Shown piece by piece: positions 1 to 8,455 of a stretch of 21,171 nt of DNA. Origin of the DNA: Escherichia coli (GTDB lineage Bacteria > Pseudomonadota > Gammaproteobacteria > Enterobacterales > Enterobacteriaceae); the NCBI RefSeq assembly GCF_003334355.1, contig NZ_QOWP01000047.1. One strand, 5' to 3'. The notes under the pieces were generated by a model that saw only the letters and a list, made by a program, of their open reading frames with translations, was not told the DNA's origin and did not search any database. Each line of letters begins with the position of its first letter. Positions within the stretch are counted from its first letter, which is position 1. Position numbers and translations under genes: made by a program.

Positions 1-75
1 GGTCGTTAGCTCAGTTGGTAGAGCAGTTGACTTTTAATCAATTGGTCGCAGGTTCGAATCCTGCACGACCCACCA
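1..75 (+). tRNA. lysZ: tRNA-Lys (anticodon UUU), 5' end cut by window edge (first G missing)
   Basis: Identical to the complete tRNA copy at 208-283 minus its first base; anticodon TTT at 33-35; ends in CCA at 73-75. The paralogue name is by position (penultimate gene of the lysT-valT-lysW-valZ-lysY-lysZ-lysQ operon) and is less certain than the tRNA identity. Confidence 0.9.
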
Positions 76-156
76 ATTTAAAGGTGGTTACTGGTAGAGA
101 ACGTGAAGGATAACGTTGCGTTAGCAACGGCCCGAAGGGCGAGACGAAGTCCAGTC

Positions 157-174
157 ATCCTGCACGACCCACCA
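157..174 (+). repeat. Orphan copy of the tRNA-Lys 3' end (ATCCTGCACGACCCACCA) inside the inter-tRNA spacer
   Basis: 18 nt identical to the last 18 nt of both flanking tRNA-Lys genes, including the encoded CCA, with no upstream tRNA body. Confidence 0.8.
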
Positions 175-207
175 TCCTGAATGATTAAAGCAGCATAATC
201 CCGCAAG

Positions 208-283
208 GGGTCGTTAGCTCAGTTGGTAGAGCAGTTGACTTTTAATCAATTGGTCGCAGGTTCGAATCCTGCACGACCCACCA
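208..283 (+). tRNA. lysQ: tRNA-Lys (anticodon UUU), complete 76 nt
   Basis: GGGTCGTTAGCTCAGTTGGTAGAGCAGTTGACTTTTAATCAATTGGTCGCAGGTTCGAATCCTGCACGACCCACCA: cloverleaf with D-loop AGTTGGTAGA, anticodon loop CTTTTAA, T-loop GGTTCGAATCC, encoded CCA. Last tRNA before nadA. Confidence 0.93.
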
Positions 284-287
284 ATGT

Positions 288-314
288 AAAAAAGCGCCCT
301 AAAGGCGCTTTTTT
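288..314 (+). terminator. Intrinsic terminator of the tRNA operon
   Basis: Stem GCGCC (294-298) / GGCGC (304-308) with loop CTAAA, followed by TTTTTT (309-314), directly after the last tRNA. Confidence 0.8.
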
Positions 315-470
315 GCTATTCAGGCATCTCTCAATTTCAATTCTTGACCCTGATGACATACTCCGCGCTTGCTGCGTAAACAACTTTACGTCGGAGGAAT
401 AAGACGCAAAGTGTGGCATTCGGCATCTCATACGTAATTCGAGTGACTTTTCCCCACCATTCGACTATCT

Positions 471-488
471 TGTTTAGCATATAAAACA
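471..488. promoter_or_regulatory. Candidate NadR operator (TGTTTA-N6-AAAACA) in the nadA promoter region
   Basis: TGTTTAGCATATAAAACA lies about 75 bp upstream of the nadA ATG. It resembles the NadR box TGTTTA-N6-TAAACA as I recall it (5 of 6 in the right half-site); nadA-pnuC is the classical NadR-repressed operon. Confidence 0.55.
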
Positions 489-560
489 AATTACACCGAT
501 AACAGCGAATATTACGCTAATGTCGGTTTTAACGTTAAGCCTGTAAAACGAGATGGTAAG

Positions 561-1604
561 ATGAGCGTAATGTTTGATCCAGACACGGCGATTTATCCTT
601 TCCCCCCGAAGCCGACGCCGTTAAGCATTGATGAAAAAGCGTATTGCCGCGAGAAGATAAAACGTCTGCTAAAAGAACGTAATGCGGTGATGGTTGCCCA
701 CTACTATACCGATCCCGAAATTCAACAACTGGCAGAAGAAACCGGTGGCTGTATTTCTGATTCTCTGGAAATGGCGCGCTTCGGTGCAAAGCATCCCGCT
801 TCTACTTTGTTAGTCGCTGGGGTGAGATTTATGGGAGAAACCGCCAAAATTCTCAGTCCGGAAAAAACAATTCTGATGCCGACACTTCAGGCTGAATGTT
901 CACTGGATCTCGGCTGCCCTGTTGAAGAATTTAACGCATTTTGCGATGCCCATCCCGATCGTACTGCCGTCGTCTACGCCAACACTTCTGCTGCGGTAAA
1001 AGCGCGCGCAGATTGGGTGGTAACTTCAAGCATTGCCGTCGAACTTATTGATCATCTTGATAGTTTGGGTGAAAAAATCATCTGGGCACCCGACAAACAT
1101 CTGGGGCGTTACGTGCAAAAACAGACGGGTGGAGACATTCTATGCTGGCAGGGTGCCTGTATTGTGCATGATGAATTTAAGACTCAGGCGTTAACCCGCT
1201 TGCAAGAAGAATACCCGGATGCTGCCATACTGGTGCATCCAGAATCACCACAAGCTATTGTCGATATGGCGGATGCGGTCGGTTCCACCAGTCAACTGAT
1301 CGCTGCTGCGAAAACATTGCCACATCAGAGGCTTATTGTGGCAACCGATCGGGGTATTTTCTACAAAATGCAGCAGGCGGTGCCAGATAAAGAGTTACTG
1401 GAAGCACCAACCGCAGGTGAGGGTGCAACCTGCCGCAGCTGCGCGCATTGTCCGTGGATGGCCATGAATGGCCTTCAGGCCATCGCAGAGGCATTAGAAC
1501 AGGAAGGAAGCAATCACGAGGTTCATGTTGATGAAAGGCTGCGAGAGAGGGCGCTGGTGCCGCTCAATCGTATGCTGGATTTTGCGGCTACACTACGTGG
1601 ATAA
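561..1604 (+). CDS. nadA: Quinolinate synthase A
   Basis: 347 aa ORF; translation recognised as E. coli NadA, full length, with the C-terminal CxxC Fe-S motif (CRSCAHC). Confidence 0.96.
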
Positions 1605-1641
1605 CGAATAATAAGGCGTAACGTTACGCTTTGGGGGAAAG

Positions 1642-2361
1642 ATGGATTTTTTTAGTGTGCAGAATATCCTGGTACATATACCAATAGGGGCAGGCGGTTA
1701 TGATCTCTCATGGATCGAAGCGGTAGGCACGATCGCCGGGTTGCTGTGTATTGGCCTTGCCAGTCTGGAGAAGATCAGCAACTACTTCTTTGGCCTGATC
1801 AACGTCACCTTGTTTGGCATTATTTTCTTTCAGATTCAGCTGTATGCCAGCCTGCTATTACAGGTGTTTTTCTTTGCCGCGAATATTTACGGTTGGTATG
1901 CGTGGTCGCGACAAACCAGTCAGAACGAGGCGGAGTTGAAAATTCGCTGGTTGCCATTGCCGAAGGCACTCAGCTGGTTGGCGGTTTGCGTTGTTTCGAT
2001 TGGTCTGATGACGGTATTTATCAATCCGGTGTTTGCATTTTTGACCCGCGTGGCAGTCATGATCATGCAAGCATTAGGATTACAGGTTGTGATGCCTGAA
2101 CTGCAACCGGACGCTTTCCCGTTCTGGGATTCATGCATGATGGTGTTATCTATCGTGGCAATGATTCTGATGACGCGTAAGTATGTGGAAAACTGGCTGT
2201 TGTGGGTGATTATTAACGTGATTAGCGTCGTTATTTTTGCACTTCAGGGCGTTTACGCCATGTCTCTGGAGTACATCATCCTGACCTTTATTGCGCTCAA
2301 CGGCAGCCGGATGTGGATCAACAGCGCACGTGAAAGAGGCTCACGCGCGCTGTCCCATTAA
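1642..2361 (+). CDS. pnuC: Nicotinamide riboside transporter PnuC
   Basis: 239 aa hydrophobic multi-helix ORF recognised as E. coli PnuC; GGGGGA ribosome-binding site 6 nt upstream; 37 bp downstream of nadA, consistent with a nadA-pnuC operon. Confidence 0.95.
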
Positions 2362-3299
2362 TGGTGATGATGTGAATGGCCAGACACCCCTTCATTCAGG
2401 TGGCAGTCTGGCCCATGACAAGGTTGATATTCCATCTGAATGGTGGCGTGCTCAATCTGATAGTGATCCATCAGGTAGTGTTGGATCTGATCCAACAAGG
2501 CATCGTGATCGTGTGGCGGGATCACCTGCACATGCAACGTCATCACCGGCTTCTCGCCTACCATCCATACATGTACATGGTGCACATTGCGGACTTCCGG
2601 GATTTCCCGGCACATACGACGCTTCAGTTCAGCGATATCCAGCGATACCGGTGCACCTTCAAGTAATTCATTCACGCTATCTTTCAACAGTCGCCACGCG
2701 CTACGCAGAACCAGAAGCGACACCAGTATCGAGAGAATGGGGTCAGCAGGTGTCCAGCCAGTCCAGATAATAATCAACGCGGCAATAATAGCCCCAACCG
2801 AACCCAGCAGGTCCCCGAGCACATGCAGTGCCGCTGCTCGTACGTTGAGGTTTTTCTCTTCGCTGCCGTGATGAAGTAACCAGAAAGAAAGTATATTTGC
2901 CAGCAACCCAGCCACGGCAATTGCCATCATCATGCCGCCCTCGACCGGACGCGGCGTGCGGAAGCGTTCTATCGCCTCCCAGACAATCAAAATGGTAATT
3001 ACCACGAGGGCTATGGCATTCACAAACGCCGCGAGCGTGGTCAGTCTTAGCCAACCGAAAGTGTGGCGAATGGTGGGAGGACGACGTGAAAATTGCACGG
3101 CGAGTAGGGCGAAAAGCAGGGCGGCAGTATCGGTCAACATATGACCCGCATCGGCCAGCAATGCCAGAGAACCAGAAAGAAAACCACCAACGACTTCTAC
3201 CAGCATAAACCCGGCAGTCACGCCGAAAGCATACAACAAGCGACGAGCATTATTATCTTCTGGCAGGTGTGAGGACGTGTGTGAGTGTGAGTGCGCCAT
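2358..3299 (-). CDS. zitB: Zn(II)/H+ antiporter of the cation diffusion facilitator family, ZitB
   Basis: 313 aa ORF with His-rich N terminus ([11 protein letters not shown]) and C terminus (HSHHHH) and CDF-type transmembrane core; recognised as ZitB (YbgR). AGGGA ribosome-binding site upstream of the ATG at 3299. The 3' end overlaps the pnuC stop by 4 nt. Confidence 0.95.
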
Positions 3300-3360
3300 G
3301 ACGAGTCATCCCTTAATTATTCTCACTTAACTTTATGACATCATACTGCTTTTAGAAGTG

Positions 3361-3391
3361 AAAAATTAAAAGGGAGAGACTCCGCTCTCCC
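3361..3391 (-). terminator. Intrinsic terminator downstream of ybgS
   Basis: Stem GGGAGAG (3372-3378) / CTCTCCC (3385-3391); on the minus strand the hairpin is followed by a U-rich tract (complement of AAAAATTAAAA at 3361-3371). Confidence 0.7.
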
Positions 3392-3412
3392 ATTATTGGC
3401 TATTTTGCAGGG

Positions 3413-3793
3413 TTACTGCGTGGTACCGTCGGTTTTGGTATCGACATCATTATTGATGCCATCACCGGTTTGTACCTTTTTATTGATATCCGGACAGCGA
3501 CCATCTTTGCACATGGTGTTCTTGTGCTCTTCATCTTTGGTCATTCCGTCATTGTTCATTGAAGAACCATCCGAATGCAGCATTGTGCCGCCAGAACCGG
3601 TATTTACCCCGTTATTGTCGACGTTATTTGGCGCGACATTTTCACGGGCGTCAGGGGCTACCTGGCCCGCATCAGCTGCGGCGTTTGCCTGGCCGTTATT
3701 AGTTTGCGCTCCGCTATCGGCAGCCAGTGCGGCACCGCTGGCAAGGCTTAGAGTGGCAGTCAGAAATAATGTGGCCAGTTTTGTCATTTTCAT
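3413..3793 (-). CDS. ybgS: Uncharacterised secreted Asn/Asp/Gly-rich protein YbgS
   Basis: 126 aa ORF with a good ribosome-binding site (AACAGGAGCATCCT-ATG) and a signal-peptide-like N terminus ([26 protein letters not shown]); the mature part is low-complexity, rich in N/D/G/T. Recognised as E. coli YbgS. Confidence 0.9.
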
Positions 3794-4020
3794 AGGATGC
3801 TCCTGTTATGGTCGTTATGTCGGATAACCTCTTCCAACAGTGCATTTGCAGGTGAATATAAGGCATTGGTTTAAGATTTCAGCCAGGTTATGAAACGCAG
3901 CAGAGAATCTTGAAATAATTAACAAACAAAGGAGTTACAGTTAGAAATTGTAGGAGAGATCTCGTTTTTCGCGACAATCTGGCGTTTTTCTTGCTAATTC
4001 CAGGATTAATCCGTTCATAG

Positions 4021-6272: not shown

Positions 6273-7313
6273 TTACTCAGCAATAAACTGATATTCCGTC
6301 AGGCTGGAATACTCTTCGCCAGGACGCAGGAAGCAGTCCGGTTGCGGCCATTCAGGGTGGTTCGGGCTGTCCGGTAGAAACTCGCTTTCCAGAGCCAGCC
6401 CTTGCCAGTCGGCGTAAGGTTCGGTTCCCCGCGACGGTGTGCCGCCGAGGAAGTTGCCGGAGTAGAATTGCAGAGCCGGAGCGGTGGTGTAGACCTTCAG
6501 CTGCAATTTTTCATCTGCTGACCAGACATGCGCCGCCACTTTCTTGCCATCGCCTTTGGCCTGTAACAAGAATGCGTGATCGTAACCTTTCACTTTGCGC
6601 TGATCGTCGTCGGCAAGAAACTCACTGGCGATGATTTTGGCGCTGCGGAAATCAAAAGACGTTCCGGCGACAGATTTCAGGCCGTCGTGCGGAATGCCGC
6701 CTTCATCAACCGGCAGATATTCGTCCGCCAGAATCTGCAACTTGTGATTGCGCACGTCAGACTGCTCGCCGTCAAGATTGAAATAGACGTGATTAGTCAT
6801 ATTCACCGGGCAAGGTTTATCAACTGTGGCGCGATAAGTAATGGAGATACGGTTATCGTCGGTCAGACGATATTGCACCGTCGCGCCGAGATTACCCGGG
6901 AAGCCCTGATCACCATCATCTGAACTCAGGGCAAACAGCACCTGACGATCGTTCTGGTTCACAATCTGCCAGCGACGTTTGTCGAACCCTTCCGGCCCGC
7001 CGTGCAGCTGGTTAACGCCCTGACTTGGCGAAAGCGTCACGGTTTCACCGTCAAAGGTATAACGGCTATTGGCGATACGGTTGGCATAACGACCAATAGA
7101 GGCCCCCAGAAACGCGGCCTGATCCTGATAGCATTCCGGGCTGGCACAGCCGAGCAGCGCCTCGCGGACGCTGCCATCGGAAAGCGGAATACGGGCGGAA
7201 AGTAAAGTCGCACCCCAGTCCATCAGCGTGACTACCATCCCTGCGTTGTTACGCAAAGTTAACAGTCGGTACGGCTGACCATCGGGTGCCAGTGCGGGAG
7301 TTTCGTTCAGCAC
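6273..7313 (-). CDS. galM: Aldose 1-epimerase (galactose mutarotase)
   Basis: 346 aa ORF recognised as GalM; its start overlaps the galK 3' end by 7 nt. Confidence 0.95.
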
Positions 7314-8455
7314 TGTCCTGCTCCTTGTGATGGTTTACAAACGTAAAAAGTCTCTTTAATACCTGTTTTTGCTTCATATTGTTCAGCGACAGCTTGCTGT
7401 ACGGCAGGCACCAGCTCTTCCGGGATCAGCGCGACGATACAGCCGCCAAATCCGCCGCCGGTCATGCGTACGCCACCTTTGTCGCCAATCACAGCTTTGA
7501 CGATTTCTACCAGAGTGTCAATTTGCGGCACGGTGATTTCGAAATCATCGCGCATAGAGGCATGAGACTCCGCCATCAACTCGCCCATACGTTTCAGGTC
7601 GCCTTGCTCCAGCGCGCTGGCAGCTTCAACGGTGCGGGCGTTTTCAGTCAGTATATGACGCACGCGTTTTGCCACGATCGGGTCCAGTTCATGCGCAACA
7701 GCGTTGAACTCTTCAATGGTGACATCACGCAGGGCTGGCTGCTGGAAGAAACGCGCACCGGTTTCGCACTGTTCACGACGGGTGTTGTATTCGCTGCCAA
7801 CCAGGGTACGTTTGAAGTTACTGTTGATGATGACGACAGCCACACCTTTGGGCATGGAAACTGCTTTGGTCCCCAGTGAGCGGCAATCGATCAGCAAGGC
7901 ATGATCTTTCTTGCCGAGCGCGGAAATTAGCTGATCCATGATCCCGCAGTTACAGCCTACAAACTGGTTTTCTGCTTCCTGACCGTTAAGCGCGATTTGT
8001 GCGCCGTCCAGCGGCAGATGATAAAGCTGCTGCAATACGGTTCCGACCGCGACTTCCAGTGAAGCGGAAGAACTTAACCCGGCACCCTGCGGCACATTGC
8101 CGCTGATCACCATGTCCACGCCGCCGAAGCTGTTGTTACGCAGTTGCAGATGTTTCACCACGCCACGAACGTAGTTAGCCCATTGATAGTTTTCATGTGC
8201 GACAATGGGCGCATCGAGGGAAAACTCGTCGAGCTGATTTTCATAATCGGCTGCCATCACGCGAACTTTACGGTCATCGCGTGGTGCACAACTGATCACG
8301 GTTTGATAATCAATCGCGCAGGGCAGAACGAAACCGTCGTTGTAGTCGGTGTGTTCACCAATCAAATTCACGCGGCCAGGCGCCTGAATGGTGTGAGTGG
8401 CAGGGTAGCCAAATGCGTTGGCAAACAGAGATTGTGTTTTTTCTTTCAGACTCAT
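7307..8455 (-). CDS. galK: Galactokinase
   Basis: 382 aa ORF recognised as GalK, full length, with the GHMP kinase motif ([11 protein letters not shown]); GGAG ribosome-binding site upstream. Confidence 0.96.

Follow-up and report, generated by a model that had tools for sequence, protein, structure and literature searches.

A palindrome between nadA and pnuC in Escherichia coli as a possible allele of an older inverted repeat that may form a weak stem-loop at the pnuC Shine-Dalgarno sequence

The 14-bp perfect palindrome between nadA and pnuC of Escherichia coli may be the form taken in K-12-type strains by a short inverted repeat of older origin, which would form a small stem-loop in the read-through mRNA at the pnuC Shine-Dalgarno (SD) sequence, with a weak effect. 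This is our leading reading of the comparative sequence evidence, held tentatively, and a neutral relic without function ranks closely behind it. Most probably it either tunes expression weakly after transcription or has no role; the repeat is at most a minor fine-tuning element.

We analyzed a 21,171-nt stretch of E. coli DNA (contig NZ_QOWP01000047.1; hereafter, the window), which covers the tRNA-Lys / nadA / pnuC / zitB region. ORFs and RefSeq annotation agree on nadA at 561-1604 and pnuC at 1642-2361, with a 37-nt gap between them (Table 1). The 14-mer in this gap equals its own reverse complement, and the identical sequence lies at 783,140-783,153 in MG1655. It ends 3 nt short of the G-run of the pnuC SD, with TTT intervening. 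The initial annotation was correct in its description of the site: the two genes, the gap, the ribosome-binding site, and the self-complementarity all agree with the sequence, the ORFs, and the RefSeq annotation. A literal sequence search of the literature found no paper containing the 14-mer.

Table 1. Features of the nadA-pnuC junction, with coordinates in the window
Feature	Position	Strand	Remarks
14-bp perfect palindrome GCGTAACGTTACGC	1616-1629	+	RNA form: 5-bp stem GCGUA/UACGC with 4-nt loop ACGU
Extended stem-loop UAAGGCGUA-ACGU-UACGCUUUG	1612-1633	+	9 pairs including G-U; fold prediction
Conserved 5' arm GCGU	1616-1619	+	Aligned to the Ala-stop codons GCG TAA of Buttiauxella-type long NadA
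Conserved 3' arm ACGC	1626-1629	+	Ends 3 nt ahead of the SD G-run; from the 29-taxon table
UUU, proposed terminator tail	1630-1632	+	Predicted to pair with A1613, A1614, and G1615
nadA stop codon UAA	1602-1604	+	ORF and annotation
A/U-rich single-stranded linker, nadA stop to stem	1605-1611	+	Evolves faster than the rest of the gap; variable at 4 of 7 positions in Escherichia
pnuC Shine-Dalgarno G-run GGGGG	1633-1637	+	Invariant within Escherichia; first G alone touched by the extended stem (U-G)
pnuC start codon AUG	1642-1644	+	ORF and annotation

Several other features lie near the junction. Directly 5' of the stem, positions 1606-1614 (AAUAAUAAG) form an (ARN)3-like A-rich tract of the type bound by the Hfq distal face; the searchable literature yielded no sRNA or Hfq link for E. 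coli pnuC. Downstream, pnuC (+) runs toward zitB (-), and the two genes share their last 4 nt (2358-2361), so that a terminator would have no intergenic space. An imperfect inverted repeat at 471-488 (TGTTTAGCATATAAAACA), some 75 nt ahead of the nadA start, resembles a NadR box (consensus TGTTTA-N6-TAAACA). The palindrome itself is, by eye, unlike this TGTTTA-type repeat, and a NadR box identity was rejected for it. An Rfam search of window positions 1-4000 (E ≤ 1) returned nothing at the site and left 300-4000 empty; upstream of that interval, the matches were tRNA, RtT, and chance ones alone. The RtT RNA (RF00391; 56.7 bits, above the gathering score) spans 7-174, in the spacer between two tRNA-Lys copies. 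A REP/BIME identity was likewise rejected: the 31-mer around the palindrome occurs at a median of one place per genome (4,343 genomes), and the window holds no other copy with fewer than three mismatches.

The palindrome as such is not above chance. Two perfect palindromes of at least 14 bp occur in the window, compared with 1.5 on average across 500 dinucleotide shuffles, of which 382 (76%) held at least one. The other one, TGATTTCGAAATCA at 7534-7547, lies inside a 382-aa ORF on the - strand (7307-8455) that is galK-sized. The corresponding RNA hairpin is, by fold prediction, mildly above chance. Its core of 5 bp with a 4-nt loop and three G-C pairs has a predicted energy of -4.2 kcal/mol (z = -2.2), and the extended 9-pair stem reaches -8.9 kcal/mol (z = -3.0; 3 of 200 shuffles equally good). 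In a test for stems that abut the SD, E. coli gave p = 0.003. Within a 135-nt context, core pair probabilities are 0.88-1.00, and the predicted probability of stem formation is near 1 in both E. coli alleles described below. In the same context, the SD has a mean unpaired probability of 0.46 in both alleles, and of 0.53-0.63 once the 5' arm is scrambled. The E. coli SD is not sequestered, as G1633 alone is paired, in a U-G pair. These values do not fit a translational-coupling hairpin in E. coli.

The nadA-pnuC locus is present in all 5,426 complete E. coli genomes, which carry two main forms of the palindrome. The exact 31-mer around it occurs in 4,343 genomes (80%), while GCGTCACATTACGC replaces the 14-mer in another 1,037 (19%; B2/ST131 type). 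The two alleles differ by A1620C and G1623A, which together remove the inner pair and the central CG and keep both GCGU/ACGC and the outer AAG/UUU pairs. The perfect symmetry is therefore an allele and not a fixed feature: in the K-12-type allele, an extra inner pair (A1620-U1625) and the loop ACGU happen to make the DNA symmetric. The initial annotation had stressed this 14-bp symmetry, which is incidental, given that a 4-nt loop cannot pair and that 19% of genomes are asymmetric. In our leading reading, the perfect symmetry itself is without a role. Among Escherichia genomes, variation affects 11 of the 37 gap positions: eight of the 13 in the flanks and loop, and two of the 16 in the arms, where one change still allows a G-U pair, with none in the 3' arm or the SD. 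This avoidance of the arms by substitutions has a hypergeometric P of 0.048, or 0.006 if the SD is included.

To look beyond Escherichia, we extracted the nadA-pnuC gap from each of 80 enterobacterial loci returned by a PnuC-based scan. GCGU...ACGC lies directly 5' of the pnuC SD in 29 enterobacterial taxa, comprising Escherichia, Klebsiella, Kosakonia, Silvania, Superficieibacter, Intestinirhabdus, Buttiauxella, some Citrobacter, and several further lineages. Across these 29 taxa, the arms are conserved while the loop and flanks vary, and the arms are separated by 4, 6, 9, 10, or 11 nt. Each of the four core pairs is kept in 27 to 29 taxa and is thus near-invariant. The 3' arm reads ACGC in 27 of the 29; the exceptions are AUGC in B. 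warmboldiae, a compensated G-C to A-U change, and ACGU in Buttiauxella sp. B2, which gives a G-U pair. E. albertii has an uncompensated A-C mismatch. The fifth pair is looser, with A-U in 12 taxa, U-A in 2 (K. grimontii and K. michiganensis), and a mismatch in 13. Two Kosakonia species have GNRA-type loops (GCAA and GUAA). Together, the variable spacing, the G-U pairs, and the GNRA-type loops fit an RNA stem-loop better than a protein operator. Silvania carries a 14-mer identical to that of K-12-type E. coli. The AAG/UUU extension is confined to Escherichia, and other genera read TCT, TCA, or TGT at the tract.

Two observations from the same loci stand apart. In Intestinirhabdus alba (L041), the 14-mer is the same as the E. 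coli B2 allele; no ORF of at least 250 codons ends upstream of pnuC there (upstream of 2501), and nadA may be disrupted. Two Buttiauxella loci (L042 and L052) have 103-104 nt before pnuC, about 80 nt more than sister species, and this longer gap contains an 8-bp inverted repeat, GCTGCATC...GATGCAGC, which may be an inserted element or a separate hairpin.

Statistical support for pairing was assessed in two ways. In a 14-taxon MAFFT alignment (A2), 92.9% of cells were paired, versus 12-60% when the partner column was slid. Covariation in A2 amounted to one double-sided change and one G-U, and 59 of 500 shuffles reached the observed score; with so few independent events, the covariation evidence is statistically weak. 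We also asked, in 23 genus-level groups, how often a stem has its 3' arm abutting the SD when the upstream part alone is shuffled. This SD-anchored test replaced whole-segment MFE z-scores (mean only -0.70), which were too noisy for such short sequences. It gave p ≤ 0.1 in 7 of the 23 groups (binomial 0.006, Fisher 0.08), although inheritance of the stem makes the groups non-independent. Its anchor rule missed two Kosakonia stems, where the SD reads GAGG, and those two zeros are artifacts. Altogether, the arms appear to be mildly constrained, as judged from these comparisons. About half of the genus groups are without an SD-abutting stem, among them Salmonella, Enterobacter, Kluyvera, Lelliottia, Pluralibacter, Trabulsiella, Leclercia, and Erwinia. 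The operon is NadR-regulated in Salmonella despite the missing stem, so the element is dispensable. Other complementary pairs occupy the same place in Raoultella (CGCA/UGCG) and in B. noackiae (AAGG/CCUU).

The repeat appears to be older than the present end of E. coli nadA. The NadA C-terminus comes in two lengths (compared at L036, L053, L060, L074, L081, L065, L078, and L083, and at E. coli window positions 1590-1641): a short form ending in TLR plus G, A, T, or P, and a long form ending in ELRRxIKGNA or KLKVKGNA. E. coli NadA ends in TLRG, and ELRRxIKGNA is found in Buttiauxella, two further lineages, Pantoea, and Erwinia. Since the Erwiniaceae outgroups have the long form, the short NadA is probably the derived one. 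In alignment, the closing codons of long NadA run collinearly with the E. coli spacer, and E. coli GCGTAA falls on their GCG TAA (Ala-stop). Where a long NadA occurs together with the stem (in Buttiauxella and the two further lineages), the nadA-pnuC gap is 22-23 nt, the 5' arm contains the stop codon, and the 3' arm adjoins the SD. From this limited sample, we infer that the inverted repeat remained in place when nadA became shorter.

This arrangement in the Buttiauxella-type genomes is like that of known coupling hairpins, as is that of the Citrobacter freundii group, where GAGC in the last nadA codons pairs with GCUC running into the SD. E. coli is unlike them, with its stop codon 8 nt 5' of the extended stem and its SD not sequestered. 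Because the conserved relation is that of the stem to the SD and not to the stop codon, coupling through ribosome melting is unlikely as the shared role.

Published data bear on transcription across the junction. The curated Term-seq tables of Adams et al. 2021 (PMC7815308) cover MG1655 in LB at two densities and in M63. Nearby 3' ends in these tables are at 781652 (lysQ) and 784891 (ybgS), and there is no nadA or pnuC 3' end, a result of low power given that the end of the operon is itself unmapped. This argues against a strong 3' end at the site. The TERMITe and SMRT-Cappable-seq supplements gave no match for the site among the entries listed, and the LTEE supplements gave no gene-name match. 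In a nadR mutant of Salmonella, which is without the stem, nadA and pnuC mRNAs are both up 8-10 fold (PMC12421817), and both genes are also up-regulated in nadR mutants of E. coli B (PMC9645810). This co-induction implies read-through from nadA into pnuC.

With these results, the alternative functions proposed for the site can be weighed. The initial annotation suggested a partial terminator or attenuator. In an intrinsic terminator of this kind, some RNA polymerases would stop at the UUU to give a nadA-only transcript and less pnuC mRNA. As in intrinsic terminators, the E. coli stem-loop is followed directly by U residues, and the A-rich upstream and U-containing downstream flanks resemble a weak bidirectional terminator, which a simple scan calls on the - strand. 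The + strand, however, was not called in the consensus promoter/terminator scan, and only three U follow the stem (UUUGGGGG) before GGGGG, against a criterion of about five or more U in 8 nt. In Escherichia, these U are moreover predicted to pair with the upstream AAG as part of the stem, so the -8.9 kcal/mol is reached only by using them in pairing; the core alone has 5 bp with three G-C. By comparison, a real terminator in the window, at 286-318 after the tRNA operon, has -19.1 kcal/mol and six U. The Term-seq tables list no 3' end at 783,13x-783,16x in any of the three conditions, at the low power noted above, and nadA and pnuC are co-induced in nadR mutants. No genus other than Escherichia has the U tract, which rules out termination as the conserved function, and we consider even a partial terminator in E. 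coli improbable. A DNA operator for a dimeric factor, such as the LacI/GalR-family RbsR, whether as a roadblock or through control of a pnuC promoter within the operon, is less probable still. The 14-mer is a perfect palindrome with a central AACGTT, and it agrees with GCGAAACGTTTCGC, the presumed RbsR operator, in 12 of its 14 positions; the two mismatches are symmetrically placed. GCGAAACGTTTCGC is located in the rbsD leader and, like the palindrome, just before an SD; in addition, AATAAT (1607-1612) has 5 of 6 positions of the -10 consensus. Yet about 15 matches of at least 12/14 to any given 14-mer are expected by chance per E. coli genome, and the half-site has T at position 4 in place of the A of the LacI-family consensus. 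Unlike in LacI/GalR-family operators, neither the center nor the spacing of the E. coli site is conserved: the central CG is lost (center CA) in the 1,037 genomes with the second allele and in most other genera, and the arm spacing ranges from 4 to 11 nt. The G-U variants preserve RNA pairing and not DNA symmetry, no promoter-like site was called in window positions 300-2600, and the summaries of RbsR SELEX results, which give about five RbsR peaks, do not mention nadA or pnuC. It would thus be surprising if the palindrome were a working LacI-family operator, for example for RbsR, in the 80% of E. coli that carry it. If it were, nicotinamide riboside uptake would be tied to ribose/nucleoside status by the blocking of transcription into pnuC, and the B2 lineage would be without such control. 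In a milder variant of such an allele effect, PnuC output would differ measurably between the two E. coli alleles, owing to a stem of nine pairs in K-12 and of eight in B2.

The stronger rival is the absence of any function. The repeat would then be what remains, in decay, of the former nadA 3' end and SD-adjacent sequence, its symmetry in most E. coli the chance outcome of two substitutions, and the apparent conservation of its arms a product of shared descent and of constraint on the pnuC RBS alone. We regard this as a serious possibility, though one that we do not quite favor. It is consistent with the chance expectation for palindromes of such length, the coexistence of two alleles in E. 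coli, the loss of the stem in about half the genera, the non-significant covariation, and the negligible predicted effect on SD accessibility. In addition, Enterobacter asburiae (L056) keeps ACGC next to the SD without a matching 5' arm, which suggests that this arm may be kept for another reason. On the other hand, the 5' arm GCGU is non-coding in the short-NadA genera, yet it is invariant in Escherichia, Klebsiella, Kosakonia, Silvania, Superficieibacter, and Intestinirhabdus, while neighboring gap positions are scrambled. Substitutions within Escherichia avoid the arms, and several lineages (the Citrobacter freundii group, Raoultella, and B. noackiae) carry another complementary pair in that position. 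The RNA-level junction element that the initial annotation also proposed is thus compatible with the conserved GCGU/ACGC arms and the pattern of substitutions, and it is the terminator part of that proposal that falls away.

Under the stem-loop reading, the inverted repeat would fold in the nadA-pnuC mRNA, with its 3' arm ending a few nucleotides before the pnuC SD. In Escherichia, the stem has gained the outer AAG/UUU pairs. Transcription probably reads through the stem, and any effect would be small and would come after transcription. Folded RNA where the pnuC RBS begins could slightly lower 30S access, and the stem could also delimit the nadA and pnuC segments for attacking nucleases. By either route, expression of the membrane transporter would be trimmed relative to NadA.

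Intercistronic stem-loops are known to tune discoordinate expression within operons, as with the REP hairpins between malE and malF and the structure at the 3' end of iscR in iscRSUA. The E. coli stem is like these in its location in the spacer of co-transcribed genes, in probably being read through, and in its possible function as a nuclease barrier or in shaping the RBS. It differs from them in being single-copy and far weaker (-4 to -9 kcal/mol), in a sequence unrelated to REP, and in its absence from Salmonella and Enterobacter.

The finding matters little. A short perfect palindrome is to be expected by chance in a 21-kb window, and what looked like a TTT tail belongs to the stem. The evolutionary history is mildly instructive, in that a repeat that once straddled a stop codon seems to have survived the shortening of the gene. 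Should the stem indeed adjust PnuC relative to NadA, it would be a further small intercistronic hairpin that sets the stoichiometry of an enzyme and a transporter, here in a NadR-controlled operon, and it could bear on the engineering of nicotinamide riboside/NMN uptake.
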